Shown here in pieces: positions 3,324 to 58,251 of a stretch of 64,000 nucleotides of DNA; within the stretch, counting starts at the first letter, position 1; each line of letters begins with the position of its first letter. The stretch comes from Eledone cirrhosa (Eukaryota), in NCBI GenBank assembly GCA_964016885.1, contig OZ024741.1:381858001-381922000 (forward strand). Reading direction: 5' to 3'. The notes under the pieces were generated by a model. That model saw only the letters and a program-made list of their open reading frames with translations. It was not told where the DNA came from and searched no databases. The position numbers and the translations under genes are program-made.

Positions 3324-3916
3324 GTAAGTGTGAAGTGATATTTTTAGGGGAATAGGAAATTATGTTCAGGTTTAATGATTTTGTAAATAAAACACTTCAG
3401 AATTATACAATAGTTTGAAGAACAATTCTGATAAAAGCAATTAGCCATTTTACAAAGGTAATTACAAATCTATAGATTTATTTATCTGGACTTATATAGC
3501 ATTAAACAAATCAATATTTCAAAGTATTTCTTAGCTAATATATATTAAGAAGAGAAATAAATCTAACAATATACGACACTAATAAAATCATTGAATTATT
3601 TAAATGTTTTAAATTATTGCATATAAGGAAATGAAATAAGATAATTAAGTTCTTAATTTAAAATTTCATCAGATGGATACAAGATTTGATTTATATGTAG
3701 TAACATGATAATAGTAACTCAAGCCTGTTTGAATTATAAACTGGTAGAGAAGAAATGACGGAAGTAATTATTTTGTGATATGAATAATCATAGATGTTAA
3801 AATGTGTTGTTGAGTTCTTGTGATTGATTATTCCACAGTTTTAGCGTTCTGACAATATTATTTATTATTCAGTTATGAATCAGCTTCCTTAAATATATAT
3901 ATATATATATATATCA

Positions 3917-3948
<32 letters not shown>

Positions 3949-4149
3949 ACACCACAATCCAACATTCAACATACTCGCAGTACAGGAACACCCCATTCAA
4001 TCTACAACCACCAACCCGAACCACATTTTACAACAACAAGGAATATAACAAACACAGGAGACCACTTAACATCAGCAACAACACCTCTACCCCAACCATT
4101 TTTTAGAGACAGCACACAGATACAGGCAAACAAAATAACACAAGACAGG

Positions 4150-6400
4150 GAGGAGAAACCGATAGTAATAAAAATTATCAATCTTACTAGTGCAGAACCA
4201 ACACCCAACCTTATCAACTTACTCTCCAAAGGTCTTAAATTCACACCGGCCCCATTACGTCCTAACTACTATGAAATGAAGGAAGACATCACAGACTTCT
4301 GTAGAAAGTTACGACTCAGTGAACAACTATTCGACCAGTACGATGAGGATGAATCATTAGCCAGAAATAGAAACAACTAAACCCCATCAAAAGGTAGAAA
4401 TAAAATCCTGGGAGAATTCTGTGAACTCATCACAAACTTCCCTTACCAACACTTGCACATACAAAAACACAAGCCAAACTTCAACAAGAAAGAATGGGAA
4501 GAATTAAATAGATTAAAAACCGACAGAACCATTACAATTAAAGAGGCTGATAAAGGGAGTACATTAGTCCTAATGGAGACAGAATTCTATTTCAACTTAG
4601 CGCTCTCCACTTTAGAAAACGAAACATACTACGAAAAGGTTGAACACTACAATCAACAGAAAATTATAAGAAACCTAAAAGCTCTAATCAATCAATACAA
4701 AGAAGGACTCACTATAATGAATTCAGCTTCATCACAGACTTCACAAGTAAATCCAGCCTTTTCTACGGTATCCCTAAAGTACATAAAAGCGAATTAATAA
4801 GTAAGGCATGCAAGGAATCCACAGACATAGTCATCAATGTCCCCTCACCCAATGATCTCAAATTAAGACCTATAATAGCAGGCTCCGCTTGCGAAACCCA
4901 CCGCCTTAGCAACTTCATTGTTACCCTTCTCAAGCCTTTTCTTAAACACATCAAAAAATATATAAGGGACGACCTAGATATGCTCAATCACCTCCCTAAT
5001 ATGCCACTTTCTGAACAAACCCTACTAGTGACGTGCGATGTGGTCAACCTATACTCCAACATCCCCACAACCTAGGAATAGAAGCTATCCAATTCTGGCT
5101 GTATAATTACCACAATGAACTCCCACAACGCATCAAAAAAGAATTCGTGATAGAGGGACTCAAATTTATCTTGGAGAACAATTACTTCGTTTTCAATAAC
5201 AAACCCTACAGACAGAAATCTGGGACCGCTATGGCAACGAAAACAGCCCCCACCTATGTCAACCTAGTCATGGGATACGTGGAAATCACCCTCTACACTA
5301 AAGTCCCAAACAAATTTGGAAACACTCTCCACTTACACATAGAAAGGAACTGGAAGCGATATCTAGATGACTGCTTCATCCTTTGGCACGAAAACATCGA
5401 GAAACTTAAAGAATTTCACACCCTTATAAATGGGCTCAACACGAATATTAACTTCACGATGGAATACAGCCATCAAATACTCCCCTTCCTCGACATCCTC
5501 ATTAAGATCCATAACAAAAAAATAGAAACAGACATATACTACAAGCCCACAGACTCCAAGCAATATCTTCCTTTCAACTCTTGCCACCCTAGACACGTTA
5601 AAATTAATATTCCCTACAACTTAGCCAAGAGAATCTGTACTATAGTCTCCAATAAAAGCACCTGCTACTTACTGCTACAAGAACTAAAGGACACACTCAT
5701 AGGCAGGGACTACCCTGCATCACTAATTGACAATGGAATCCAACGTGCCCTAAAACTCAGTACCCAGGACCTTAGACACCCTAAAGTAAATCAACCGAAA
5801 CTAAAAGCTTTTCCATACATATCCACACACAACCCCCTCAACAATGAGGCCTCTGACACCATCCTCCTGTGTTGAAAAAGGACCACAGAATGAACCAAAT
5901 CCTACGAACACACGATATCATAAAGAGCAAAAGACAATCTAAGTCAATGAAAAACATCCTAACACATGCCAAAGTACTGCCAACCACAACAACGAAACCC
6001 ACAGTAAAAAAATGCGATAGACCCAACTGTGGCATTTGCATCAACCTAATAGAGGGTTCGGAATTCTATTTCAAAGAAGGACAACGTTTTATAATAAAAC
6101 ACAATTTCACATGCGCATCAGAAAATCTAATATATGTATTAACTTGCTCAGGTTGTCGAGAACAATACATAGGCCAGACCAAATACAGCCTCTGCCAACG
6201 CATGACTGTCCATAGATCCCAAATTAAAATACGGGAATACAGGAAAATACCACTGAGTGAACACATTGATACCTGTGCCGCCCAATTTCAGAATATTTTC
6301 CCTCTCCAAATTTAAAGATAATGCCACCCACACACAGCGCATCAGCAAATAATCTTACTTTATTAACAAATACGGACCCCGTCTAAACACTTCTCCCTAA
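4150..6400 (+). pseudogene. PLE reverse transcriptase + GIY-YIG endonuclease, frameshifted
   Basis: ORF pieces 3916-4380, 4453-4797, 5033-5875 and 5869-6315 join into one RT-EN polyprotein. Confidence 0.9.
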
Positions 6401-6613
6401 GACGAACCCACAACATACACACGTCAACATACATACCTCCATCAGCATACATCTCTACCCACATATAAACACAATAACATACGTAAACACACATGTTCTA
6501 TGGTGCAACACAAATATACACAATTTTACATACATTTTGATGTCTATAGATATAAACGTGCCGACACACACACATACATAAACGCACACATGCATTGCAT
6601 ACTGATGGGCACA

Positions 6614-6824
6614 TACATATTTGTGCACAGATATTCCAATACGGCAAGGCCTAATGAATTCCCCTTGCAGTACGTACAATCTGAACACACTCCAGATACA
6701 TGTGTACAATTTGTGCACAGGTATACAATTTCTGGACACACTCCAGTTACATATTTGTGCACAGGTATTCCAATACGCAAGGCCTAATGGATCCCCCTTG
6801 CAGTACGTACAATCTGGACACACT
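6614..6824 (+). repeat. Tandem duplication (about 134-bp period) in the PLE 3' UTR
   Basis: TACATATTTGTGCACAG(A/G)TATTCCAATACG..GCAAGGCCTAATG..CCCCTTGCAGTACGTACAATCTG(A/G)ACACACTC occurs twice. Confidence 0.85.
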
Positions 6825-6965
6825 CACACACACCTTGGTATTATGCCAATACTATATATCATTTCACACCTTTTATTTTTAAGGTTTTTGATGTTCTATT
6901 GAGAGAATCGATTTTACTGAAAATATCGAATAATGTACACCATTTTACCAGGAAAAAATACTGGT

Positions 6966-7001
<36 letters not shown>

Positions 7002-10959: not shown

Positions 10960-11182
10960 CAATGTACATATGTACGTATGGATTATATCGAAAATTAATA
11001 ATAATGTTCCAGTCGTTGGTAAAGAAACGGCCCGATTAGAAGCCGTAAATCGCTCGGTATGCAAATGAGGCTACGCAGCCGATGTGTACTTTAGAAAATA
11101 CTATATATTTTCAACCGTTCAACAGACTGGCAGAGGTGTACAGTCCTGAAAGTTCCACAAAGCCAGTTTTGAACAAACAGGT

Positions 11183-11229: not shown

Positions 11230-12321
11230 AGGTTTGAAGGTTCACCACTGGATAGAGTTGGTCATTCCGTATGGTCAATCTTGCTGTAATAATAGGGAGA
11301 GTACTCAACGTAAAGCAGCTCAACCGTCTTCGTTTGTGTAGTTGGTGGTGCGAGTACGGAGTTAATTATTATAATAAAATAACAGGAGGTTGGACTTGTG
11401 TAAATCCTTGAAAAGTTTATTATACTATGATCATTTCAATGACCGTATTCCGTATGAATCCGGTGATATCATCAGGTATTCGAAATATAATAAATGAATG
11501 TAACAGATAAAATCCATGGGGCTGAAAAACATAGACCTGAGGGAGACCTACCATCTAGTATCTTCCACTTTAGCCGGTCGCTCTCAAGTGCTGGCTATTC
11601 GGTCTACTTAAGGCTATCTGGTGAGGGGGCGAAAGCTTATAGTGTGCTACTAACCTCCCGGTCAAAGAGAAGAAAAAAAAAGAGAAAAAAAGAAAGAAGA
11701 AAACTGAGCGTTAATGTCATGCTACAATCAGGCTAGGAATTGCCGCGAAAAATGTTATTCTTAAGAACCTATATCTTAACAGAGGTATATATTATAACAG
11801 AGGTATATATAATGGGCGTCTGCATGATATAATGTGAACAGAAAATTGGAACGTTAAATTTTTATTTAGATTTATAGGATGAAATTAAAAAAAATTAAAT
11901 TAAAGATTAAAATTATAAAATTAAAAAAAATTGAAAATTAAAAATTAAACAGTTTAAACAAATTTAAGGTTTGGGTTTCGAGATTTAGTTAAAGAATTTA
12001 CAGAGAGAGTCTTTTATGAACAAATTTTAAGCGTATTATAAAGATCCTCGATAAGTTTTCAGGGTGGGATATAGAGTAAAGATTAAGTCCTTCTTTAGCA
12101 GTCAAACAGCACGCGACGACTGCAGACTCCAGCCAGCCCATCTTAACCACGTGTCAGCCATTCCGAGTGAAACCGTCTAGCGAAAGATTAGGAAATCAAT
12201 TTTTCCGAGCACTCGAGGAATGCAACTGTTCTAGGCTTCGGGTGTGCTAGTTGGAAGTCAGCCATTGTCGTTAGGCCATAACGATGACCTAACGACAATG
12301 GCTGACTTCCAACTAGCACAC
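11230..12321 (-). mobile_element. 5'-truncated PLE remnant: GIY-YIG C-terminus, 3' UTR with HHR, 5' fold-back
   Basis: Minus strand near 11960-12040 reads like ..FIKDSL..KPNLN (PLE endonuclease end). HHR at 11422-11479. Perfect hairpin at 12242-12321. Confidence 0.55.
11422..11479 (-). ncRNA. Minimal hammerhead ribozyme with palindromic stem III
   Basis: Minus strand ATAC-CTGATGA-[extended stem II]-GAAA-TGATCA-TA-GTAT. Confidence 0.75.
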
Positions 12322-12463
12322 GGCGGGGGGGTCTGTGCCATGCTTATGAAGAAATAGAAGGCAATAAAATGAAGAAAATAAATAGAAAATAAATAAAAAA
12401 TAAAAATGAAGATTCAAATAAAAAAAATGTGTGTGTGCTATATATATATGCATTTAATATATT

Positions 12464-13113
12464 AAAAACCAGTATGACTCTAAAAACCGGTTTGTCTGTG
12501 TGTTTACATACAGAATAGCTGGATACTCACAGTAAAGTAACCAGTGAAAGACTTGGTACATCTACATATGTATACGTGTGTGTATTCATATGCATACTAG
12601 TATTTCAGTATGCATATGTAGATGTACATTTTTAACTTAATTGTTTAAGCGTCAGTCATACAAAAGTGAGTTACAAACGAAACGAAATTTAATTTCGTTT
12701 CGTTATTTGTTTTTATCGTCTCCGTTGAACCGGTACGTACTCACACTCTATGCAAATTAGTCTGCCCACTACTAATTTTCATAGAAAAAGCATATAACGA
12801 TATGTGCTTTTACGATTCTCCAGAAATGCCGGTAGATAGGTAAATATTGCTGATGAGTTGTAACAACAACGAAACTAGTTCAATATTCCTTGTCTGGCTT
12901 TCTGGAGAATAGAGGAAAGGTGTTTCCTCAAAAACCAGTATGACTCTAAAAACCGGTTTGTCTGTGTGTTTACATACAGAATAGCTGGATACTCACAGTA
13001 AAGTAACCAGTGAAAGACTTGGTACATCTACATATGTATACGTGTGTGTATTCATATGCATACTAGTATTTCAGTATGCATATGTAGATGTACATTTTTA
13101 ACTTAATTGTTTA
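12464..13113 (+). mobile_element. ORF-less retrozyme-like unit: 466-bp period, identical 184-bp direct terminal repeats, internal HHR
   Basis: 12464-12647 is identical to 12930-13113. HHR at 12843-12887, several internal hairpins, TA-rich flanks. Confidence 0.8.
12843..12887 (+). ncRNA. Type I hammerhead ribozyme, canonical core
   Basis: AATATTG-CTGATGA-GTTG-TAACAA-CAAC-GAAA-CTAG-TT-CAATATT. Stem I extends via ATTCTCCAGAAA/TTTCTGGAGAAT to 12815-12910. Confidence 0.92.
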
Positions 13114-13133
13114 TACATAATATATATATATAT

Positions 13134-13270
13134 GAAGGCGTGTGGCTGAGTGGTTAGAGAATTGGATTTTCAATCGTAAGGTTGTGAGTTCGATTCGTGG
13201 ACCAGGCGATGCGTTATGTCCTTGAGCAAGATACTTTATTTCACGTTGCTCCTTCTACCTGGAGTTGCGA
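13134..13270 (+). mobile_element. tRNA-derived CORE-type SINE
   Basis: A box TGGCTGAGTGG, B box GTTCGATTC, CORE-like TGTCCTTGAGCAAGATACTT. Degenerate relatives near 25930-26075 and 37765-37830. Confidence 0.75.
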
Positions 13271-13438
13271 CCGATAGATAGTATTAGCAATTCGAAAGAC
13301 CAACGGAAACATTGTTCCCTCGGTCCGATTTGACGAAAGTCGATCGTTCCTATAAAAATATATATATATATATATATAAATGGAAAAAATGAAACGAAAG
13401 TTCATTTCTCACTCACTCTTAGTACGGCTGTTACTTAA

Positions 13439-13886
13439 ATATAAGTATGTATACGTACATACATATATGTATACGGACGTACGGTAGTATATATATATAT
13501 ACATACATGCACACATACATATATGTACGTATGGATTTACCGAACATTTATTATAATGCTCGGTTTGTTTGTAAATAAACATCCCGAATTAAGCCGTAGT
13601 GTTTAGCAACCATCGTTGCCCTTTTGGTCAACACTGGCAAAGGAACAATGTACTAGTTTCAAGCTTATTATCTATCGTCAGCATCGTATATCTTCCTGCC
13701 AGATGATTGAACGTCTGAAAGTATATACTTTCATTATGCATATTAACGGCTGAGCAGCCCAATTTGCATTTCGAGTGAGTTAATCGGCCGGGCGCACCGA
13801 GACGATTTATGTGTGCATGTATGTATATATATACATACTACTGTACGTCTGTATACATATATGTATGTACGTATACATACTTATAT
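13439..13886 (-). mobile_element. ORF-less unit with about 79-bp inverted termini and internal HHR
   Basis: 13439-13518 is close to the reverse complement of 13808-13886. HHR at 13646-13686 (-), octamer at 13762-13769. Confidence 0.7.
13646..13686 (-). ncRNA. Minimal hammerhead ribozyme (weak stem II)
   Basis: Minus strand CGATG-CTGACGA-TAGATAATAAGCTT-GAAA-CTAG-TA-CATTG. Confidence 0.7.
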
Positions 13887-14162
13887 ATATATTCTGTTTT
13901 AACGTTTATAATTATTTCCATTTAATTGCATAACAGCTGTATGTTTAGGTTGAATATGTAATTGGCTGTTATGATATTGCCTTCGGTGTTATCTACTAGT
14001 GTGAGTTTTGTGGTTTATCAAGTTTTTCTGTAAGAATTGTAAGTTTTCCATTCATCTCTTGTAGTATATTTAGGATTTTCTCATTTATAATTATAGTTGT
14101 GTTGTCAAATTCCAGTGCAATTTTCCGGATCTGTATAGTTTGAGATATTTGAAAAGTGGGTA

Positions 14163-19317: not shown

Positions 19318-19392
19318 ACTGTTCACCTGTCATCTGTCAGACGTAGTGAAAATATATGATATGTTCTAAAATATACATGATTGATCGTCCCG

Positions 19393-19487
19393 ATTTGCAT
19401 ATTAGCAGACTGGCTGATCAGTCAGATTTGCATACGTGCAGATCCACTGATCAGCCATATTTGCATATCAGCAAACAGGCCAATCAG
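19393..19487 (-). promoter_or_regulatory. Three 33-bp tandem units, each with an octamer (ATTTGCAT), plus a CCAAT
   Basis: ATTTGCAT at 19393, 19426 and 19459; CCAATCAG at 19480. Function is inferred. Confidence 0.5.
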
Positions 19488-19847
19488 CTTCCCGTATTCG
19501 AGCGATAAATTCCCGGCTTTGCCATATACAAATACATTTAAAAAAACATTATCTCTCTACATGTCTGAATACAACAAATGTAATCTGAGTTTTTCGAATA
19601 TCAATAATGATATTCAATTCGTTTGCAATTATGATAAGAAAAGCCTCAATAATGAGGGAGTCATTCTACTGGCATGGCTTTTAGAAAGATTCTGTTTGCA
19701 TAATTGCAAACGAATTGAATATTATTATTAATATTCGAAAACTCAGATTACATTTATTGTATTCAGCTATGTAGAGCGATCATTTCTTTTTTATTTACAT
19801 ATACATCTATACGCAAGCATTTGCACACGAAGAAGAACGTATATATA

Positions 19848-23223: not shown

Positions 23224-25815
23224 ACAACGCCCACGCAACCCACCCCAAGTTCCCCCTTACCACCCTGACAACCCACTCCACCCCCTCACCCACCAACCAC
23301 GAACTCGACACTAAACTCATCAGGCTAAAACACTCCATCTCGGATATTCTTCACAAACACACACACACGCATAACACACAACCTCACCAATTCTCAACTC
23401 ACCACTCTCTCCAACCTGAAATCAAAGAACCTCATCTACCTCCCCTCCGACAATGGAAAAGAATTCTGCGTCATCAGCAGAGAGGTCTACAACACCATGG
23501 CCCTCCAACACCTTGACGATGACAACCTCTACTCCAAGGTCACGGGAATCACTCCCGTGCAGATAGTGGAGCACATCAAAGCCGCCTGGACCAACATCTG
23601 CCATCGGCAGAAGCTCCCGAAGAAGCTGAGATACAACCTCCTGACGAGGAACAGTAGACTACCTGCCTTCTACCATCTCGTGAAAACACCCAAACAGGGA
23701 CCCGACCTGAAGATCAGGTCCATTGTATAGAGCGTGGATAGACCGCTCTACAAAATTCCATGGCTCCTAGCCAGAATACTCAAACCCATCTTAGACACCT
23801 TGCCGGGACACGTTAACAGCTCCGAGGAGGTGTTGGAGCGCCTGCATCAAATAGAATGCGACACCAGAAAGGCTAACAGATATGCCTTCACCCTTGTTGT
23901 AGTCGCTCTCTACACCTCGGTCCCGGCACTCCTGGCCGTTACTATACTGATGGAACGCGTCCAATCCACCGAGCTACACTACTTCGGGCTCACCACCACT
24001 GATATCCACCACCTCCTATCAATCGTCGTTGAAAACTCATACTTCGGATTCCTTGACCAAACGTACCAGCAAACCTCGGGACTGCCCATGGGCTCTAGCC
24101 TGTCGGGTGGGCTAGCGATCTCATACATGGACAGCCTCGAGCGCAAGGCACTCAACACCTGCCACCCCAACACCGTCGCCTTTTTCTCAAGGTACGTGGA
24201 CGATATCCTCATCATCACATCTTCCCAAGACATGGCGAACAGAATCTATGAGACGTTCAACAACACGGACGAGAACATTGATTTCAGTGTTGAACACTCC
24301 AGTGACGACGGGTCACTTGACCTCCGCGACTTCCGAATCAACATCATGGAACAGGGAGGTTTCCACTACAACTTCTACCGAAAGGCAGCCTGCATGGAGC
24401 TGTTCGTCCACCACAAGTCCGCTCTCCACAACAGTGCTAAAAGAGGATACATCACAAACGAGATAACGCGAATTAAAAACAGATGCAGCGCTCCAGCGAG
24501 TGGTGTCACTCATACCAAGCGATTCCTCGAAGTGCTGGTGACGACGGGTACCCTGCCTCACTCACAAACAGAATAAGAGACACCAGAAACAAGAGGCAGA
24601 GAAACACCGAAGGCATGTCCTCCCTTAAAATACTACACCAGGGCGAGTATACCACCAATGCTATCCGCAAGGCTATACGGAGGGAGGGCCTTGACATCCA
24701 CCTGGCCCACTCGAGCCCCTCCCTGCTAAGATGCCTCTCGAGGAAACCCGGGAAATCAACTGACGCGTGCTCCCTCAGAACGCCATACGAACTGTTGCCA
24801 TACGCACATACGTTGTGTATAAGATAGAATGTAACCAGTGCAACCACTACTATATAGGTAGCACAATCCGGCCGCTACACATCCGGATCAAGAAGCACAT
24901 TAACACCAGGGCCTCGTCTTTCCGGAAACACATAACCAAATGTGGAAACAAAGACGGAAGGCCCATTGTCACAATTCTAGCGAGAGAAAGAAACGTCGGC
25001 ACATTACGAATCAAGGATGCACTTTGGATCAAACGCGTAGGGCCACCAATAAATAACCGATCCGAGAGAAGCGAAATGATGTGGTTGGTTTAAGTAAACA
25101 AACGATGAAGCAACACACGCACACACACACACACACAAGCGAGACATCAACACACGTACACACACACACAGTAGCATTCCACCATACGAACATACTACAC
25201 TGCTAATACAGACGAACGAGGCAACAACACACGCATACACACACACACTCAAGCGAGACAACAACACAGGAACACACACACACAGTAACATTCACCAAAT
25301 AGGCAGAGAATACTATCACAACCACACACTATTCAACAGGGCAGATAATACAATGGACTGACAGTTAACGCCACCCCACCCCCACAATTGAAAGAACTAC
25401 TTCGGCCGCTGACCTCTGCCTGACCGACCCCATTTCAAGCGCACACGCGCTCTGCTGAATACCTCAGATATTCAAAACCACGGACAGCGGGGGACACGTT
25501 TCGCACCTTTCCGACAGATAACCTACCCCCTCCCCCGGAAAAAACCCAGTTGATGGATGTGAATCCGAAATATATAGGGACAATTAAATCCTCCCCAAGG
25601 TAATTCTATCTCGTGTTATTATTTTTTATCCTTTACGCTCTTTCCTACATTCTTTTACACGCACACATCTCAACCTACAATCACTTACATCTCTCTCTCC
25701 ACCACCGGATCTTGTTACCCGGAGATTTACCCATCTGCATTGTTGAGGCTTCCAAAACGACCTAAAGAAATATACCTTATTATTCCACAATGCTTCAAGC
25801 AAACTTCAATACTCT
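23221..25815 (+). mobile_element. Penelope-like element (Penelope/Poseidon-type), decayed
   Basis: ORFs 23497-23730, 23734-24576, 24483-24827 and 24767-25093: FYHLVKT, LYTSVP, GLPMGSSLSG, RYVDD, VVYKIECNQCNHYYIGST. Degenerate HHR at 25545-25579. (TA)n on both sides. Confidence 0.9.
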
Positions 25816-25897
<82 letters not shown>

Positions 25898-26489
25898 CAT
25901 ACATACAAACACCCATAAACATAGATAAAGGACCAGTGGATTAAGAATTGCGTGTCAGTGAGTCAGATTTCCGGACAACACGATGCATTTTATTCTCCAG
26001 CAGGACACTTTATTTTACGTTGTTCCAGTTCACTCAGATATACAAATAAATTGCGACCTCACTGGTGCCAAGCGGAATGGGCCTTTGTCTTTTATCCTAG
26101 TAAACATCGGTGCGGTCCAGAAGAAAGCCTGAAAATCATAGGAGACTTCTGGTATCACACAAAACACTTTGCTCGTAATTCTGCCGCGTGCAAATTCATA
26201 CGCATAATGATATATGTAACAAGTCTAAAACTGCCAAATAGACGGTAAGATGAAGGAAAGGAAAATGTTAATTACCTCGTGATCTTCTTTTTGGGAGGGG
26301 GGCAATTTTATCAGTGTGTTGGAGGGTGAATTTTATGTTTTTATCTATATTTGTGAACGTCATAGATATTATGTCGGCCACCTCACGACTAAAAAGAACT
26401 TACGTGTATCCGCAATTAATGCTGTAACTCAGAGGACTAGATCTCTTACACTGCATGGATATACTGAAATTGAACGGATACATAATATC

Positions 26490-27010
26490 TACACTGAATT
26501 GACTTAGGAATTGAAGGTGCCGCAGCCATAAGACTGCCTCAAAGATCTGCTTCATGAAAGTACTACACTTCAGCGAAAACATAACCACAGCTATCCGCAA
26601 GGAAGGATTTTACATACAATTAGCTCACTCCGGTCGTTCACTACAAGGATATATTTCTAAAATGTGATCCAGAGGCAACAACAAGCAATGCACGCTGACT
26701 AACTGCATTATCCACGGCACAGGTAGGCGCCAGCTGACATGTGGCGTACCGGATTGAATGAAACAAATCTAAGTTCTACATTGGTACTATGATTCGACTA
26801 CTCCATATAAGCATTAAAGAACACCTCAACATGCACACATCATCATTAAGAAAGGCATTAACGAATGCAGAAACACCAACAAAGATATAGCAGTTAATAT
26901 TGAATCCAGAGATAACAATGTGGGCAATTTAAGAATAAAGGAAGCCTTCATTGTACGTAGACTCATTCCACAAATCAATAACAGAATAGAAATCAACACA
27001 CAACACTTGA
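26490..27010 (+). mobile_element. Highly decayed fragment of the 23.2-25.8 kb PLE type (endonuclease end)
   Basis: AIRKEG..QLAHSG, FYIGTMIRLLHISIKEHLN, LRIKEAFIVRRLIPQINNR. Confidence 0.75.
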
Positions 27011-27657
27011 CATAAAGGGACATTTCCACTTGCACACACTTGCAACCTAAAAATAATAATCTATATGAGAAAATTAATTCCATACATACGGCAATTGGCG
27101 TCATCCCCTTTCTTCTCATCTACAGCAAACATCAAACAATGCTTGAAAGCTGTTTATGAATTTAAAATTAATTTAAATCTAATATCAAAGCGCATAGACT
27201 GTAACGTTTTTCTATGTGAGTTCCATAGACTCTGACAAAATGAATTTTAATTCCCGACATATTACGATGAAACTAAACAACAACAACAAATAACAATGAC
27301 TACAAGGAAACTAACCTTTTCGTTGCCTTTATTCTACCGGGAATTTTGCATTGTTTTAGCCTTTTTACATAGATCACAATCAACATTACAACGGGAAGAA
27401 ACATAATAGTACCACTGACGTTATCACAGATGTGTGACGAAAGACATTTGATAGACTACATTTATATCTACATTTATATCTATATGTATAGAGTACATTT
27501 ATATCTATATTTTTAACTGTTGGTCAATCCCTGATAAATATTGATTGCCAGCTAAATTAACTATGGAATATACTGAAGTAAAAACCAATCCAAACCAAAC
27601 ATAAAGTGTGTTCTATTATATATTTTTGGCAATATGAACCTCCACAAATATAACAGC

Positions 27658-29355: not shown

Positions 29356-32300
29356 TTACAGATATATACTCAGAGTCGGCCCATTCACTCGGGCCATTCT
29401 TGCTTCTCTCACCCATCTTTCAACAAAATGCTGGGAAGAGAGCACTTCCTTCTCTACTCTGATTTTCCTTTTCAAATGAAATTTGAAAAAGTCAATCAGA
29501 GCATCACCGAAGAGGTAAGTGCTCGTCTTCAGCCCTTTCAAACGTGTCCACCATACTATCTCTTTCGCCATGGCCACCAGACAGATAAAAACTGCCTGCC
29601 CTTCCCGGCTAAAGGAGGAGGGCGGGGCAATCCTCACGATAGACTCAGATGATAGCTGGATCCGTCCTAAACGCGACAGCAGGTGTTCGACATAAACCCA
29701 CAAGTCAGCAATTTTCGGACACTGGACGAGTGCGTGCAGGACGGTTTCGTCGCCCTGCGCGCATCTCGGACATGCCCGGCTGACGGCACCTCCATGCCTG
29801 TAGAGTTTATCCCGAACTGGCAAGGCTCCTCGGTAGCACTGCCAGGCCAGAGATTTCTGGAAGTTGTCCATAGGCCCTGGCCCGAAAGTTCTTCCGAAGA
29901 GATTGGCTAGTTGATTTTCGTCGACGCCTAGAGTTTCCCCAAGTACGTCGTCGCTCTTCCCCTCCACTAATCCTCTATAGAACGCTGAGGTGGAGTTTCC
30001 ACCGATCACATTGCCCGATTGGTCGAGGGCTGTGAGCGCCTGAAGACATTCCAGTCTCCAGGCGCTCCCTCTCGGTCTTCGCTTGACCCAGGACTGCAGC
30101 TCCGTCAAGGAAACGAGCTGGGGAAAAACGCGTCTAGCAAACGGCGACCACACCTGATCACCGTCGAGGAAGAGGTGGAGATGTCGTAGCCTGAGCGCGT
30201 GCCTGCGCATCATCAGCCACGGCATGCCCAGCCCTCCACGTAGCGGGTGTTGACAACAGATGGACCGCCTGACCATCGGAGCACGTCCCATCCACAAAAA
30301 GCGAAAGAGCAAACGCTCCAGCGCAGTCAGGCGAGGCTTAGGACAAGGTACGACGGTTAGGCGGTAGCAGATGACAGACGCGATGTACGCGTTAGCCACC
30401 TCCGCTCGACCTTTCAGGGATAGCTTCCTCTCCGCCCATTTCTGGGTGAGAGAAGCCACCCTGCTCGTCACCTCGTCCCAGTTTTTGTCCGTCTGGAGGT
30501 CCGGACCGAACCAGACCCCTAGCAATTTAACCGGTCCGTCCGTCCAGCGCCCGACGACGCTGTTGGACGGCATGGACCTGCCTCTCCAGGTGCCGAGCTG
30601 CAGGCCCACTGACTTTTCCTGGTTGATCATTGCTCCTGTCACCGCTTCGCATTCTCTTAGTGTAGTGCCGATCGCCTCGATGTGTTTGGCGTTCGACACC
30701 ACTACGGTGACATCGTCCGCATATGCTGACACGGATCTTCCGCATCCTAGTTCGCGCGGGACTCCCCTCAACGTCTCCAGTTTGTGCAGTAATGGCTCGA
30801 GAGTCAATACGTACAAGAGGGACGAGAGGGGACATCCTTGGCGGACCGAGCGCATGATGTTGAACGGTTCCGACAGGTGACCGTTCACTCTCACCACAGA
30901 GCAGATGTCGCTGTGCATGGCAGCGATCCAGCCTCTGAAGACGGGCCCAAAGCCAGCCGCCCTCAGGACTGCCGCTAGGTAACGATGGTCGACCCTATCG
31001 AAAGCTTTCGACTGATCTAAATTGATCAAGGACCCACCCGTGCCAGGTTCCCTAGCTACCCTCTCTACGATGTATCGCATGAGGTGGAGGTTGTCGTGGA
31101 TGGATCTGTCGGGAATGGCGCATGTCTGCGCCTCTCCCACCAGACCACCAACGACAAGCGCCAACCTCTTTGCTAGCACCTTGGCCAAAATCTTAAACTC
31201 TGTGTTTAGCAGAGTTATGGGCCGGAAATTGTCTATGTTATCCCCCTTGTTCGGATCCTTTCTCAGCAGTGCCACCGCTCCTCGGCTCACAGAACTGGGA
31301 ATTCTCCCGTTCTGTTGCCAGTTGCAGTAGACGTCCGCCAAGAGGCCTCCGAACAAGTCTGGCATCTGTACGTAAAGTTCATAGGGCAGACCATCCAAAC
31401 CAGGCGATTTACCCCTTGTGCAGCCAGTCATTGCCTCCCGTACTTCAGCGGCTGTTATCGGCTTTTCGCAACACTTCGCCTCAGTGGCCGAGAGCCGCGG
31501 CAGTCCGTCGAGGTAGACACTAAAGTCCATCCCTCTACCCGGCCCCCCGCTGCCCCCGAACAGCTGAGTGAAGTGTCGCTGAAAAGCTTCACACATTTGC
31601 CCGGGATCGAGTAGCATGCGCCCGTCGTGGTCCACCAAAGACCGGATCGTGGCTTTGTTGCCACGACGCGCCTCCGCCACTCGGGCCCATTGAACGGCTT
31701 TCGTCCCCTCGTGTCTGAGAGCACGCACCCTAGCTCTGACAACGCAGCCTTCGTGCTTTGCATTGAAGAATTGGTCAAGGGCCAATTTCGCCGCAAGCAC
31801 GTCGGTCGCAATGCCTTTGCTAAGCGCCTCGTCTAATTTTCTAACTAGTTCTCCCTCTGCTCTATTTTTCTCTATTGCTAAAGCCTTACTAAACCTAATC
31901 GATTCTATTCTAATCGCTCTTTTCAGAGCAAACCACCACTTGTTGTTGACGATGGCCCCCGTCAACGCCCGCTTAACTAGTTCGCTAATCCGGTCTCTGT
32001 AGGCCTTGCGCGCTGGTAAGGACGCGTTTAGCTTCCAGTAGCCGGGTCCTCGTCTATGAAGCCTATCTAAGTCAAGCACACAGGTCACGAATTTGTGGTC
32101 CGTGTAGCTGACTATCTTGAATTGTGGACAGCCTATGCTAGACCTATCTATTTCCCTACAAAATACTCTATCTAGATATGATCTGGATGACCCTATGCGG
32201 TTTGTCCAAGTCCACATTGGCACATTCGGGAAATCCAATCGGTACCTGTCAGACAGTTCAAAACGCCTGAGCAGGTTGGTGAGGCTCTTGCACCCTCCAC

Positions 32301-32775
32301 CCCTATCCGCTAATCCCACACAGTCCCAGCGTGCATCTAAGATCCCGTTCCAGTCGCCCACTAACACTAAAGAGCGGGACGTTCCAAGAAAGGTCTCCAG
32401 ACGCCGGAAGAAATCAGGCCGCCCTGCTCCTGTCGGGGCATAGACGGCCACTAGCCTGAAAGCTTGCCCGTCTCCGCTGGTCACGTCCAGCACCACCAGC
32501 TTACCCTCTGGGTCCAGGAAGATGGCCCGTATGGCGAGATCCAAACCTCTCCGAAAAAGCACAGCAACTCCTCCACCCGATCCAGGACGGCTGGGAGATG
32601 CGTACACATCGTAGCCGCCGAAGATCGGTGCGAAGGCCCGTGCTTCGGAGATTCTGGTCTCGCTGATGGCCACTACATCTATGTTTAGTGACCTGAGGTC
32701 GTTGAGCAGGTGACCCTGCTTCCATGACGACCCCAAGCCACGCGCATTTATGCTGCCTATTCTGAGTGAGGTCAT
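29356..32775 (-). CDS. LINE ORF2: APE endonuclease + reverse transcriptase + C-terminal zinc finger (1139 aa)
   Basis: SINARGL, SETR, VYAP, GDWN, YLDR, TDH; KSPGLDG, FRPITLLN, KAFDRV, RQGCPLS, YADD; CPRC..ETVLHALVQC. Confidence 0.97.
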   Translation of the reverse strand: MTSLRIGSINARGLGSSWKQGHLLNDLRSLNIDVVAISETRISEARAFAPIFGGYDVYASPSRPGSGGGVAVLFRRGLDLAIRAIFLDPEGKLVVLDVTSGDGQAFRLVAVYAPTGAGRPDFFRRLETFLGTSRSLVLVGDWNGILDARWDCVGLADRGGGCKSLTNLLRRFELSDRYRLDFPNVPMWTWTNRIGSSRSYLDRVFCREIDRSSIGCPQFKIVSYTDHKFVTCVLDLDRLHRRGPGYWKLNASLPARKAYRDRISELVKRALTGAIVNNKWWFALKRAIRIESIRFSKALAIEKNRAEGELVRKLDEALSKGIATDVLAAKLALDQFFNAKHEGCVVRARVRALRHEGTKAVQWARVAEARRGNKATIRSLVDHDGRMLLDPGQMCEAFQRHFTQLFGGSGGPGRGMDFSVYLDGLPRLSATEAKCCEKPITAAEVREAMTGCTRGKSPGLDGLPYELYVQMPDLFGGLLADVYCNWQQNGRIPSSVSRGAVALLRKDPNKGDNIDNFRPITLLNTEFKILAKVLAKRLALVVGGLVGEAQTCAIPDRSIHDNLHLMRYIVERVAREPGTGGSLINLDQSKAFDRVDHRYLAAVLRAAGFGPVFRGWIAAMHSDICSVVRVNGHLSEPFNIMRSVRQGCPLSSLLYVLTLEPLLHKLETLRGVPRELGCGRSVSAYADDVTVVVSNAKHIEAIGTTLRECEAVTGAMINQEKSVGLQLGTWRGRSMPSNSVVGRWTDGPVKLLGVWFGPDLQTDKNWDEVTSRVASLTQKWAERKLSLKGRAEVANAYIASVICYRLTVVPCPKPRLTALERLLFRFLWMGRAPMVRRSICCQHPLRGGLGMPWLMMRRHALRLRHLHLFLDGDQVWSPFARRVFPQLVSLTELQSWVKRRPRGSAWRLECLQALTALDQSGNVIGGNSTSAFYRGLVEGKSDDVLGETLGVDENQLANLFGRTFGPGPMDNFQKSLAWQCYRGALPVRDKLYRHGGAVSRACPRCAQGDETVLHALVQCPKIADLWVYVEHLLSRLGRIQLSSESIVRIAPPSSFSREGQAVFICLVAMAKEIVWWTRLKGLKTSTYLFGDALIDFFKFHLKRKIRVEKEVLSSQHFVERWVREARMARVNGPTLSIYL

Positions 32776-32810
32776 GTTTAAAATAGAGTGGAAAAGATGG
32801 GAAAGACCAC

Positions 32811-34940
32811 TTACCGTACTTTTGGTAGAGGAGGGATGGTTTTTACATCCCTTTTCACTTGATCGTCTGGTGAAGGGACCGTTGAATCGTCCCTTCGGCT
32901 GGTCGTCGGCTCTTCTAAGAGAATGTCTGAATATACTCTTCGATTAATGGTTCCTCCTAGGTCCCTGAAATCACCAACTGCGTTGGGGAATTTCGTTTTA
33001 ATGTTTGTGTATTGTTTCTGTGCTATTTTTAGCAGTCTTATGTTAGTTGGCGTTTTGATTGGTGCTGGTATTATGTAGTCCTGTTGTGAAATGTCTGTGT
33101 GTTCAATTATGTAAGTCATTAGTTTCTTGTTGTGTGTGTTTATTGCCGTGCATTTGTTTTTCTGGGAGTGGGGTGTGGTTCTGCTATTTTCTTGTCGTTG
33201 TTGCTGGGTGTGTGTGTTTTGTTGTTGTGTTTGCGATGTTGGTGCTTGTGGTGGTGGTGTTGAAGGTGTTGTTGGCGGTGGGGTTGTCGCCGGTGGTGAT
33301 GGTGGTGCTGGTGTGGGTGGTGATGGTGTTGGTGGTGTTGCTGCTGTGGGTCTCTTTGCAGTAGACTTTACCCTTTTCTCATTTCTTTCCTCCCTTTTCA
33401 AAGGCGACGATGCGCTGCTTCTGCGTTTGTGCCTTCTTGAGACCTTTTGCCATCCCTCTCCCACCTCACACTCCATGTCTGATTCTGTAAGGTCGGGGAG
33501 GGGTACCAGCTCCACTCTTTCACTTGTTGTTGTTGGTGATGTTTGCACTGGAGTCTCTGTTGCAGCTGCATTTGGTATTGCTGTTGTTGTTGTTAATATT
33601 TCCACTGCTGCTGCTGTCTTTGATTTCCGTGGAGTGGGTATGGGTGCCACGGACCTATCGTTCCTGGTTGCCGCTTGTCCTGTTGCTGGTAGCCGTGGAA
33701 CCGGATTCGGGAGGAGGGGGGTTTTCTCCTTTCTCATGGTCTTCTCGTTGCAGAAGGCCCTGAGGTGAGTCTTCGATCCACAGCGAAAGCATTTCGGGCG
33801 TTTGCCCTCAACACTTATGGGCAGTTGAGTGCCGTTATCGAAGTCTATCACATCCGGGATAGCTTCGATGCACTCCTGGTTGGTTTGGATTAGCATCTCA
33901 ATGGAGGAGCCGACCCAATCTTCTCTTACTTTTTTCTGTACTTGCAGTACAGTTGTTTTGTCCTCGATTCCGACGAGGACAGACGCGGCCAGCCAAGAAG
34001 GGGTCATTCCGGGGGGGACGTGGGTCAGTTTGACCCTCACAATTTTTTGCCCGCAGTAGGAGGGCACCAACACCATTTCCTCGCTCCTTAGGGTCACTAC
34101 TGATTGGGCCTTTGCCTCCTGGGGTGTGGCAAAAAGTACGTCTACGGTGGCGTATTTTTTGCCTCGGGTGATGTGCGTTTTCCTCTGCCACACAGACCCC
34201 AAGGCTTTTTGTATTTGGGCCTCTGTGGCTCTTTCCACCCTACGGGATTTTGTACTTACTGTACGGTACGTGACCGTACAGTGCTCTTGGGTTTCGAAAA
34301 AATTTTTCGCTGCCTTGCAGATTGCTCGGTGTCCGTTCTTTGTCACCATCTTCTTCGCTTCCTCTAATTCCTCATTTGTTATGAGGATTGTTTCCAGGTT
34401 TTTCGCAATACCTGCAAATGAGATTGGTTTTTCTCTGCTGTTGTTGTTGTCGTCAGAGCTGCTGGTACTTTTGTTGTTGCTGCAGGTACTACGACTACTG
34501 CCTCCGCCGCTGTTGCTGTGGTTGTTGTTGGTGTTGCTGCTGCTAATGCTGTTGTTGTTTATGCTGCTGGTGATGCTGTTGCGGCTGCTACTGTTGTTTT
34601 CATTGTCACTGTTGCTGTTGTTATTACGGCTGCTACTGCTATTATTCCTGACCTCAGACGAATGAACTGGGTTTTCGTATTTCCCGCACACCTGTTTCGT
34701 CGCTGTCGTCGTCGTCGTGGAGAAACCTTGCACGCTTTGCACGAGACTTTTCTTTTCTTTCGTCGCTTGCGAAAGAGAAGGGAGGGAGAGAGACACATTT
34801 AAAGAAGGGAGGGAGAGAGACAATCTTCTCTCTGCTGTAGTGATGATTGAGGAAGAAGAAGACGGAATGAGTGGGAGTGACGTATGAAATTTCTTTTTCG
34901 TAGCCATGTTTTTTTGTTTAAAATGAAATTTTGGGTACAA
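32811..34940 (-). CDS. LINE ORF1: gag-like nucleic-acid-binding protein (709 aa; start may be MATKKK at 34907)
   Basis: Zinc knuckle CFRCGSKTHLRAFC (CX2CX4HX4C), N/S-rich and P/T-rich tracts, GWQKV..KRR motif, position upstream of ORF2. Confidence 0.92.
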   Translation of the reverse strand: MYPKFHFKQKNMATKKKFHTSLPLIPSSSSSIITTAERRLSLSLPSLNVSLSLPSLSQATKEKKSLVQSVQGFSTTTTTATKQVCGKYENPVHSSEVRNNSSSSRNNNSNSDNENNSSSRNSITSSINNNSISSSNTNNNHSNSGGGSSRSTCSNNKSTSSSDDNNNSREKPISFAGIAKNLETILITNEELEEAKKMVTKNGHRAICKAAKNFFETQEHCTVTYRTVSTKSRRVERATEAQIQKALGSVWQRKTHITRGKKYATVDVLFATPQEAKAQSVVTLRSEEMVLVPSYCGQKIVRVKLTHVPPGMTPSWLAASVLVGIEDKTTVLQVQKKVREDWVGSSIEMLIQTNQECIEAIPDVIDFDNGTQLPISVEGKRPKCFRCGSKTHLRAFCNEKTMRKEKTPLLPNPVPRLPATGQAATRNDRSVAPIPTPRKSKTAAAVEILTTTTAIPNAAATETPVQTSPTTTSERVELVPLPDLTESDMECEVGEGWQKVSRRHKRRSSASSPLKREERNEKRVKSTAKRPTAATPPTPSPPTPAPPSPPATTPPPTTPSTPPPQAPTSQTQQQNTHTQQQRQENSRTTPHSQKNKCTAINTHNKKLMTYIIEHTDISQQDYIIPAPIKTPTNIRLLKIAQKQYTNIKTKFPNAVGDFRDLGGTINRRVYSDILLEEPTTSRRDDSTVPSPDDQVKRDVKTIPPLPKVR

Positions 34941-35120
34941 AACCCCAATAACTGGTTATTTAACCCCGAAGGGCCAAATAACGGACAGAAAGACCCCTCT
35001 CACGAGGAGGAGGGTGTCTTTATCAACAATTTGGTTCAAGTTTTAAACAATTTACAATTGTTTTAACGGTTAAAAATTACTATACCTTACAGAGCCGAGC
35101 CTCCGTCAACCATGGCATTC

Positions 35121-41986: not shown

Positions 41987-42790
41987 AAGTTAAATAAAAA
42001 GTCAAATGTTTCAAATTTAGCTTCGTTCATTACTGCTATATATATTTTAGTGACAGCCATCTTTGGCTGTGACCTCTTCAGGCAGTTTGAATTAGTGTGG
42101 TATAGACAAGTACATATGTTGTTGAGGTGTATACTATTGTCAATACTCTGATATGACCAGTTCCTGGTTGGGTTGTTATTTCACTGCGGAACTGGAATCA
42201 TATGTATATATATGTATATATATTATTTAACCAGTATTAAACTGGTTAAACCATTATTTAGATACGCGTTACTAGGGATAATAGTGTATGAATATATTGT
42301 AAAGATTCAGGACCCGATTACTGAGTTCTTGTCGTTTTAACAGCTAAATCGAAACGGCAAGAGCTCAGGCATCGAGTTCCAGCTCTTGCTACTCGTTCTC
42401 TATAAACAGACAGATACACACACATATACAGACACACACATATATATTTGTATATATATGTGTGTGTGTGTGTGTATATGTGTGTGTATCCGCATTTCTT
42501 AACATGCATTGCTACATTATTTGTAAGCAGTTTCCTTAGGTTAGGTGCTTGGCGTCTACTATATATTATGTGTGCGTCTTTTATGAGTGCATTCATTTTA
42601 GGGGAATGTTGGAGAATCGGGAGATATCGTTTAGCGGCTTTCACAATATTGAAGTTCCTTAAATTGTGAGTGATGACAAAACGGATAACTCTTTTTTCCA
42701 TTTTATTTTGTTGCTTTGTTTTTCTCAGTGTTGTCACAGAGATGTTCTGGGCTTTGCAAATGGCTGCGTTGATGAGGTTCACCTGATATT
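41985..42790 (-). mobile_element. Neptune-type PLE fragment with 3' degenerate HHR
   Basis: ORF 42318-42782 (FVITHN..LPILQ..SRRQAPNLRKLL) aligns with the 5.8-6.0 kb region. Minus strand ACTGC-CTGAAGA-[stem II]-TAAAA-TATATA-TA-GCAGT at 42032-42086. Confidence 0.75.
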
Positions 42791-43380
42791 CTTGATTCAG
42801 TTATGAGATACGAATTTGGAAAACATCCTGCCATTATATTCATCAAAGGTCATTTATTGAAATGTAACAAGCAAGAGGGCACTTTTACAGCCCCTTTCTT
42901 AAACACTCATAAAAAATACAACAGCACTTCCAACCCCTTATCTTGCTGTCACCATTCACCATGTTCTGTGTATATATGTATATATGTGTATATACACACA
43001 TATATACATATATATACACACATATATATATACACACATATATATTTATGTGGGTATATCTTTATGCATTAATTCCTTTAAATCGTCATCAACACTCCTT
43101 GACTCCACACTCATTAATACTGCCCCCCCCCACATCCAAATATCTCTTATATATAGAGTCACACATCGTAACACAACCTGAATCTCAGTTTGACAATCGC
43201 CACCGACGAATGTTTTCCACGAAAGTTTTCCACGAAAGTTAACCATGAATCTTTAAAAATCTTCCCACCGAAGTTAACAAAGAAGTTATTAGTTCCACCA
43301 ACTCATAATATTATAATATTATAAAATTAAATCAAATTGTTTAGCACTACAAGTGAAGTCATTCTTTTCCTTTTTTACAA

Positions 43381-57033: not shown

Positions 57034-58251
57034 CAGCGGATGGACTAAATAATGGAAACACCTTAACATTTCAAACAAATTTATTTTAATATGGGGTAGG
57101 ACCGCCTTTGGCAGTAATTACAGCTTGAATTCTACGAAGTATGGACTCGTACAAAGTTTGAATTGTTTCCAAAGGAATTTTTGTCCATTCTGCAGCTAAA
57201 ACAGTCTCCAGTTCTTGTAGTGATGATGATGGAAGATATCGACTCCTTACTTGTTTTTCTAAAATGCACCATAAATGTTCAATAATATTCAGTAACAGCT
57301 TTAGATGTGTGAATTGGTGTACTATCATCCTGAAAGATTGCGTTTCCCTCCGGAAACAGTTCCGCAAACATGGGATGAATTTAATCATATAAAATGCTTA
57401 AATAATCTTGACTATTAATTCTGCCATGACTGGAAACCATTGGGGCGGCGGATTTCCAAGATATAGCCCCCCCCCCCCCCAGATCATCACATATCCTCCT
57501 CCATGTTTCACAGTTGGAAGAAGGCAGTCTGGGTCAAATGCTTCTTTTGGCTGTCTCCACACGTATAATCGACTGGTGGTCGGAAATAAGGTAAAGGATG
57601 ACTCGTCCGAGAAAATAACATTCTTCCACTGCTCTAGGTACCAATTCTGTAGGTTTTTACTCCACTCTAAACGCTTTGCAACGTTTGTTTTTGAAAGTAG
57701 GCGTTTTCTGAATGCAGCCCTCCCGTGAAATCCGGCTTTGTGCTGCTCCCGGCTAAGAGCTTTTGTGGAAGCTGGATTCTCGAGGTGGTCATTAAGATCT
57801 ACAGTAATTTTGGGAGCTGTATTTTTGTGATCGTTTCTAACAATTCGCGTAAGAGTCCGACGGTCCCTATCTGAAAGTTTTGGCTTTCTTCCGGAGTTTT
57901 GTTTCGAGGAGGATGTTTCTCCCTCTTTCTCAAAGGCTGTCATTACTTTCGAAGCAGTACTTCTTGATACACCAAACATTTCGGCTGTTTTCGTTACGCT
58001 AGCGCCTGCTATACGAGTACCAACAATTTTACCTCTTTGAAAGTCCGATAGATCTGTCATTTTAATGAATTTTAATTACCTTTCTCTGATGATATCTGAA
58101 AAGAAACAACAATTTTAACAAAACATATTATGCAACGCTAATAATAAATAAATAAAAACATAAAAGTAAACAAGCTTTTGACGGTTTTATAGATATATTA
58201 AAATTATGATGTTATGATGCGAGGTGTTTCCATTATTTTTTTCAACCCCTG
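57034..58251 (-). mobile_element. Tc1-family DNA transposon (1.2 kb, defective)
   Basis: TIRs CAGCGGATGGACTAAATAATGGAAACACCT and AGGTGTTTCCATTATTTTTTTCAACCCCTG, TA on both sides. Confidence 0.93.
57086..58060 (-). pseudogene. Tc1 transposase, frameshifted
   Basis: LSDFQRGKIVG, SGRKPKLS, WKNVIFSDES, TVKHGGG.VMIWG, NIIEHLW, AKGGPTPY. The region before NIIEHLW appears disrupted. Confidence 0.92.

Follow-up and report, generated by a model that had tools for sequence, protein, structure and literature searches.

The 64,000-nt stretch of Eledone cirrhosa DNA analysed here (the window) contains, at 12464..13113, a copy of an element that we assign to a new, multi-copy family of animal retrozymes. 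Our main reading, to which we give a probability of roughly 0.6, is that it is a young, non-coding hammerhead retrozyme inserted by a reverse transcriptase/endonuclease borrowed in trans from Penelope-like elements (PLEs), which probably copied round a circular RNA. The element is real, ordinary in kind and informative in mechanism, and the signs of circular templates are suggestive, not conclusive.

The window copy, its ribozyme and its family

Unit coordinates (q) are window positions minus 12463. The insertion has the following features.

12464..13113, + strand: whole insertion, a single arm spanning 1.39 units, truncated on the 5' side at q1 and ending at site A on the 3' side
12464..12929, + strand: repeat unit of 466 nt (q1-q466), 35% GC, non-coding, strongly self-paired
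12556..12627, + strand: long hairpin with GTACATCTACATATG arms, repeated at 13022-13093
12648..12716, + strand: the 69 nt that separate site A from site B, equivalent to the 'tail' described for PLEs (PMC11167929, PMC8557442)
12676..12704, + strand: perfect hairpin; other copies show recurrent A>G at 12682, 12686, 12687 and 12691
12710..12716, + strand: 3' end site B (q253), internal in this copy
12750..12757, + strand: octamer ATGCAAAT, intact in 118 of the 125 loci covering that stretch
12815..12910, + strand: extended stem I, enclosing the ribozyme and present in the fold
12843..12887, + strand: type I hammerhead, the only ribozyme in this copy, read directly from the sequence, with a nearly invariant core and a compensatory stem II pair
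12843-12849/12881-12887, + strand: stem I, 7 bp
12850-12856, + strand: CUGAUGA of the hammerhead core
12857-12861/12866-12870, + strand: stem II, 5 bp
12871-12874, + strand: GAAA of the hammerhead core
12874-12879, + strand: stem III, ACUAGU, 2 bp with a 2-nt loop, a perfect palindrome
12880/12881, + strand: cut predicted from the hammerhead reading of the sequence, after U12880 (q417/418)
12930..13113, + strand: second, partial unit, identical to 12464-12647
13107..13113, + strand: site A for 3' ends (q178-184), at which this copy terminates, with an internal duplicate at 12641-12647
13114..13132, no strand: (TA)-rich target flanking the 3' end, immediately ahead of a high-copy SINE-like repeat

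An earlier note on this DNA had described a 466-nt unit with exact 184-bp direct repeats and no ORF. This was confirmed: the repeats (12464-12647 and 12930-13113; 184 nt, spacing 466) are 100% identical, and no ORF of at least 100 aa overlaps the element. Read as a circle, the unit has longest ATG ORFs of 19 aa (+) and 50 aa (-). The left flank (12439-12463) is AT-rich, and no target duplication is evident at the flanks of the insertion. A single private base occurs in this copy, at 12827 within the extended stem I (T in 1 of 67 loci). The left junction has a 7-nt match to the reversed B end, which we did not count as a micro-arm, since six of the seven matching bases are the unit's own.

We take the octamer to be a possible internal promoter element, presumably analogous to the octamer promoter of newts; a literature search on the latter returned no relevant report. 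Octamer-containing motifs resembling q286-305 are also found in other window repeats (11058-11077, 19392-19488). In a 468-nt subfamily (L081/L082, L288-L290, L304-L306), three A>G changes destroy the motif, yet this form spread to seven loci, several of which carry long, nearly mutation-free arms.

The canonical hammerhead was recovered in the sequence, where the core bases of the window unit are complete, and the extended stem I and the hairpins named previously were recovered in the predicted fold. At gathering score, Rfam gave no match for the window element; the best score was 38.6 bits with Hammerhead_HH9 (E 3.9e-8), below the gathering score of 52. The fold of the unit had z = -11.85 and that of the ribozyme region z = -5.23, with none of 100 and none of 200 shuffles, respectively, being as good. 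Folding of the circularised unit, which had been proposed as a check, gave -156.9 kcal/mol and strong self-pairing. The catalytic core is not shown formed in the minimum-energy fold of the monomer.

Across the family, changes in the core amounted to 8 among 2,231 base calls, as against 4,867 among 98,401 elsewhere in the unit, and locus-fixed variable sites in the core numbered 0 of 11 (p = 0.04). The stem II pair q395/q406 is compensatory, being A-T in 47 and T-A in 21 of 69 loci. Such a short palindromic stem III hinders cutting of the monomer, and tandem RNA works as a double hammerhead (PMC4209133); eight of nine predicted Xenopus elements failed to cut in the study of Li et al. (10.64898/2026.07.22.740005). 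Since the window copy has a single ribozyme, it cannot itself release a 466-nt monomer or yield a circle, and it is likely a dead end.

The exact 33-nt core has at least 5,114 matches in the genome and its reversed control 0, so the locus is not single-copy, a case that had been raised against a retrozyme. The number is a lower bound that misses a common variant with the compensatory stem II pair and C at the cut site. The view of a young, multi-copy element of retrozyme type is supported. In a genome search with the unit, the best 40 of 510 candidates were scored, and all hold a near-identical copy. We mapped 147 non-redundant loci, made up of these 40 best matches, the first 27 core matches on contig C1 and 80 loci from end patterns on C1; duplicate fetches of the same place were removed by coordinate, and one locus had no mappable arm. 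The unit is 466-469 nt long (35% GC) across the family, 80 of 133 arms exceed one unit, and the longest reach 17 units. At one place, two independent two-armed insertions of different subfamilies (L284, L285) are adjacent.

Several other repeats lie in the window. A near-full PLE copy at 3850-6970 (+), with ~91% protein identity to the L137 family, is broken by stops and frameshifts, and more PLE fragments are present at 23350-25070, 26455-27012 and 42447-42800. The LINE at 29356-34955 (-) looks young: it has an open ORF of 1,195 aa (Exo_endo_phos, RVT_1, zf-RVT), preceded by an open frame of 714 aa without a Pfam match. Just upstream of the insertion is an inverted repeat of 38 bp (12242-12321, 97% complementary, 4-nt loop), and directly after its TA tract is the very high-copy SINE-like repeat (13133-13346); ARAGORN called no tRNA gene within 12000-14000. 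A high-copy MITE-like element whose 85-nt inverted arms are 94% complementary (13436-13889), a Tc1/mariner-type transposase fragment (57401-58075) and a Helitron fragment (62886-63590) were also found.

Insertion ends and the copying enzyme

Resolved 3' ends lay at site A (about q178-184) or site B (q253) in 219 of 228 cases and mostly adjoined (TA)n; the two sites are ~70 nt apart (69-74 nt). Genome-wide, site B followed by TATAT was found in 2,001 copies and the site A end in 777 on the forward strand (the reverse count is inflated by a gap), and ends at the ribozyme cut followed by TATAT were found 0 times. The 5' ends, in contrast, are scattered, with 7 of 240 in the cut region (q414-423; no enrichment, p = 0.26). 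Copies had been expected to start at circularly permuted positions, but circular permutation of both ends had to be rejected, since scatter is confined to the 5' ends, with the 3' ends restricted to two sites. A cut linear monomer was excluded as the template, because no class of ends coincides with the ribozyme cut and the copy continues across that site in 104 of 133 arms.

It follows from the fixed 3' ends and scattered 5' ends that the 184-bp overlap is a truncation accident without special meaning: the 'terminal redundancy' of the earlier note marks where the cDNA happened to halt. The window copy is a one-armed site-A product whose cDNA halted at q1, and the partial unit at 12930..13113 would be the part made first, if polarity is taken from the end pattern.

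Both outer ends could be seen in 87 insertions with two arms arranged head to head; 81 of these were A+B, none was A+A or B+B, and six had one odd end; of the remaining loci, eight run off the fetched DNA and 51 are single-armed or other. In the two samples that were not chosen by end, the A+B share was 38 of 43. A very short second arm was detected in 14 of 46 single-arm loci, and it was always of the opposite end type. The exception is L292, among the loci fetched later for haplotypes, which is B+B on both arms.

The PLE protein PAc cuts AT-rich DNA and extends both of its strands, starting at two internal RNA sites; the distance between these sites equals the genomic tail (PMC11167929). PLE insertions have an inverted 5'-truncated partner, (TA)n targets and a tail on one of their ends (PMC8557442). 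The Eledone family has two fixed 3' ends with the tail on one of them, an inverted 5'-truncated partner and variable 5' ends, and the 3' flanks of its copies are AT-rich or (TA)n targets. This two-site, two-strand pattern matches the footprint of Penelope-like reverse transcriptases. We infer from it that sites A and B are reverse-transcription start sites 1 and 2 and that a PLE enzyme did the copying. Mobilisation by a PLE reverse transcriptase, which had been suspected from the window alone, thus gains support from the insertions themselves (219/228 ends, 81/87 A+B), and we regard a PLE-mobilised retrozyme as very probable.

PLEs are abundant in the genome, with 10,596 GIY-YIG candidates, of which 150 were scored, and long ORFs of 938 and 1,096 aa. 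Nucleotide comparison, ribozyme scan and tblastn found no autonomous partner or shared pseudo-LTR (pLTR) among 50 GIY-YIG loci of these 10,596 candidates. One PLE family (L134, L138, L144), unmatched to the retrozyme, carries a hammerhead core within its 3' repeat and terminates at either of two positions ~50 nt apart. A 15-nt antisense match to the end of one PLE family (E 0.52) was treated as chance.

That the unit is merely the pLTR of an autonomous PLE, with the copies being 5'-truncated insertions of that PLE, would agree with the PLE-like ends, tail, inversion and (TA)n target (PMC8557442) and with the derivation of vertebrate retrozymes from pLTRs by Li et al. (10.64898/2026.07.22.740005). 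However, the arms consist of consecutive units, up to 17, without coding DNA. The reverse transcriptase and GIY-YIG ORF of an autonomous PLE is absent from the unit and was not joined to any arm; PLE coding DNA was present in six of the family loci searched, in none of them running directly into an arm's 5' end. Furthermore, there was no pLTR match among the 50 GIY-YIG loci, a small part of the 10,596 candidates, and the ribozyme is full and canonical with a long stem I, unlike the minimal kind. We therefore hold the pLTR reading to be very unlikely; the related suggestion that all copies are the 3' end of an autonomous PLE likewise finds no PLE coding sequence directly entering any arm. The least probable account, in our judgement, is a satellite or fold-back element spread at the DNA level by recombination or rolling-circle DNA copying, with the ribozyme as a passenger. 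Local duplication is evident in long arrays, but the strand-specific fixed ends, the scattered 5' ends, the A+B rule and the sense-strand recurrence of A>G need an RNA step, and the nearly invariant core with its compensatory stem II pair also speaks against this account.

A>G scars and the form of the template

The 1.4-unit insert had been attributed to reverse transcription around a circular or tandem RNA. A template of more than one unit is borne out, whereas the 1.4-unit insert alone cannot separate a circle from a tandem transcript. We consider it likely that a circular template served for a substantial share of insertions. The rival account retains the same element and the same PLE enzyme but takes an uncut linear multi-unit transcript as the template, with long homogeneous or periodic arrays made later by unequal exchange and circles, if any, as by-products. 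Such a transcript would be acceptable to PAc, which uses unprocessed RNA in vitro, its own ribozyme being dispensable (PMC11167929). Nevertheless, given the comparison of arms below, we judge the linear transcript unlikely, if well worth weighing.

Of 85 pairs of arms from one insertion, 44 showed no difference at informative sites, compared with 3.3% of 25,948 between-locus pairs; without the best-match sample, the values were 30 of 60 and 1.7%. Against a circle, 18 of the 85 arm pairs differed at two or more informative sites. Five insertion-wide variants were counted across the genome, and three of them were nearly private and present in both arms (L098, 4 of 6 matches; L089, 3 of 5; L252, 5 of 6); in L098, the variant was missing from one of five covering units. 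The outside matches of the nearly private variants are single units on other haplotypes or backgrounds. They were rejected as donors because of these different backgrounds, and no donor array is therefore present in the assembly. Private variants in both arms without a donor array count against a linear multimer and fit one circle read repeatedly, although a donor may lie outside the assembly. The remaining two variants each characterise a small subfamily, one of 7 and one of 11 loci. Consequently, homogeneity of a long array is by itself no evidence of rolling-circle copying, and small subfamilies with long arrays could act as donors of linear transcripts.

Locus-private variants occurred in one unit (254), in some units (21) or, in only 18 cases, in all units, which counts against a circle. 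At L007, L252 and L277, some variants are seen in both arms but solely in the terminal unit of each; these cannot come from a monomer circle and speak for a linear multimer. Differently edited neighbouring units in L298, L299 and L302 also favour a linear multimer, as do block patterns limited to one arm (L086_87, L050, L249, L273), which show duplication after insertion.

One arm of L282 is built of two alternating unit types, distinguished mainly by sets of A>G changes; both types recur in the other arm, the middle of which is recombined. L295 is similar, with alternating, differently edited units and both types in both arms. The unit combinations of L282 were not found as an array elsewhere. 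This absence and the recurrence of edited unit types in both arms are difficult for a linear multimer; the alternation is explained most simply by a dimer circle. In axolotl, dimers and trimers have been observed (PMC7229834). All three resolvable switches of unit type (L306, L282, L295) bracket the cut site (estimated chance ~0.02), which hints at joining there and is again unfavourable to an uncut transcript.

On the ribozyme strand, locus-fixed alleles comprised 40 A>G versus 22 T>C changes (p = 0.013), and single-unit changes were balanced (52 versus 47). The contrast between fixed and single-unit A>G was not significant (Fisher p = 0.14), and neither was the enrichment of A>G in paired sites (p = 0.19). 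The doublet q223G+q224G in the perfect hairpin, often accompanied by q219, q228 or q229, was found in 61 units from 14 loci on at least five backgrounds. Its recurrence is consistent with repeated A-to-I editing of the RNA, for which the hairpin at 12676..12704 would be a hot spot. T>C rows at q167 were gap-placement artefacts and were ignored. A literature search on retrozyme editing and ADAR yielded no relevant report.

Contigs of four sequencing runs were also searched for the unit, and no run holding it is on record as RNA. One run of unrecorded kind (X4) has a single 496-nt contig comprising the whole unit plus 30 nt; in this run the neighbouring SINE-like repeat is not covered, but another window repeat is, at low depth. 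The contig has the form that a cycle takes in an assembly graph, and it was not counted as evidence.

Taken together, the A>G scars, the insertion-private variants in both arms and the two-unit periodicity favour a circle over the alternatives, with local tandem duplication and uncut multimers being possible. A more specific version is that the Penelope-type enzyme held individual edited RNA circles, both monomers and dimers, at two fixed sites and copied round each of them repeatedly from both ends of one break, so that edits repeat in step and edited forms founded subfamilies; we offer it tentatively, at somewhat less than even odds.

If a PLE enzyme does copy round a circle, multi-unit loci would be transcribed, and the palindromic stems III of neighbouring ribozymes are predicted to pair and cut, giving monomers and some dimers that a host ligase would close. 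Hairpins of the RNA would be A-to-I edited, as the A>G scars suggest. The PLE protein would then cut (TA)n on both strands and use the two DNA ends as primers at fixed RNA sites separated by 69-74 nt, as the footprint indicates. Each cDNA would pass the ribozyme site, extend over 0.1 to more than 10 units and halt at a scattered position, and the two would meet head to head, the arrangement seen in the DNA. Long arms would later be reshaped by tandem duplication and exchange, of which some arrays bear traces.

Comparison with known systems

In its sequence features, the Eledone unit qualifies as an animal non-LTR retrozyme. Metazoan non-LTR retrozymes have units of 150-450 bp, with ~5,000 copies in mussel, and circle-templated tandem cDNA made by a PLE reverse transcriptase has been proposed for them (Cervera and de la Pena 2020; PMC7229834). 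The Eledone family resembles them in its tandem non-coding unit, one canonical type I hammerhead, low GC, self-pairing, thousands of copies and co-existing PLEs. Its unit is slightly longer, and it is known from DNA alone, whereas RNA circles and cleavage were measured there (PMC7229834). The words 'inverted' and 'tail' are absent from the main text of that paper, which gives no account of insertions with two arms and two fixed ends.

Vertebrate retrozymes (Li, Clavereau, Pollet 2026; 10.64898/2026.07.22.740005) are of the same class with the same proposed mobiliser, and their units of 51-972 bp span the Eledone size. Support there comes from co-occurrence and pLTR phylogeny, and local tandem amplification is favoured, whereas the Eledone evidence is an insertion footprint, with no pLTR parent found among 50 loci. 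The main text contains no cephalopod and no tail or head-to-head analysis.

PLEs, especially Poseidon PAc of Anolis, share with the Eledone family two internal start sites, a tail at one end, 5' truncation, a partner arm that is inverted and likewise 5'-truncated, targets that are AT-rich or (TA)n, and a type I hammerhead (PMC11167929, PMC8557442). In contrast to them, the Eledone unit has no ORF, its tail is 69-74 nt instead of 30-40, an arm can hold many whole units, and the start sites are U-rich and not an AC-rich stem-loop. Hammerhead repeats of newt and axolotl, which give monomeric and multimeric RNAs, have a similarly short and palindromic stem III, with which efficient cutting is predicted to depend on a second copy (PMC7229834, PMC4209133). 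They form mainly satellite arrays, while the Eledone insertions are dispersed and very young with PLE ends, and ribozyme activity is predicted. Plant LTR retrozymes differ in their type III hammerhead, PBS, PPT and 4-bp target duplication; the Eledone hammerhead is type I, and the Eledone repeats, instead of being LTRs, form a partial tandem whose length varies.

Judged by titles and abstract openings, a literature search found no paper on tails or inverted arms of retrozymes or covering cephalopods, an earlier listing in a repeat database or supplement being possible; a search on hammerhead ribozymes in octopus gave no relevant report. In the retrozyme papers cited here, the proposals of PLE mobilisation and of a circle template rest on co-occurrence, shared ribozymes and phylogeny. 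In the Eledone family, the retrozyme insertions themselves bear the PLE footprint, and precise predictions of the start sites (q179-184, q253) are available, together with edited haplotypes and a strict rule of one site per strand. Both proposals thus become directly testable in vitro, and the family bears on the origin of the tandems, inversions and tails of PLEs.
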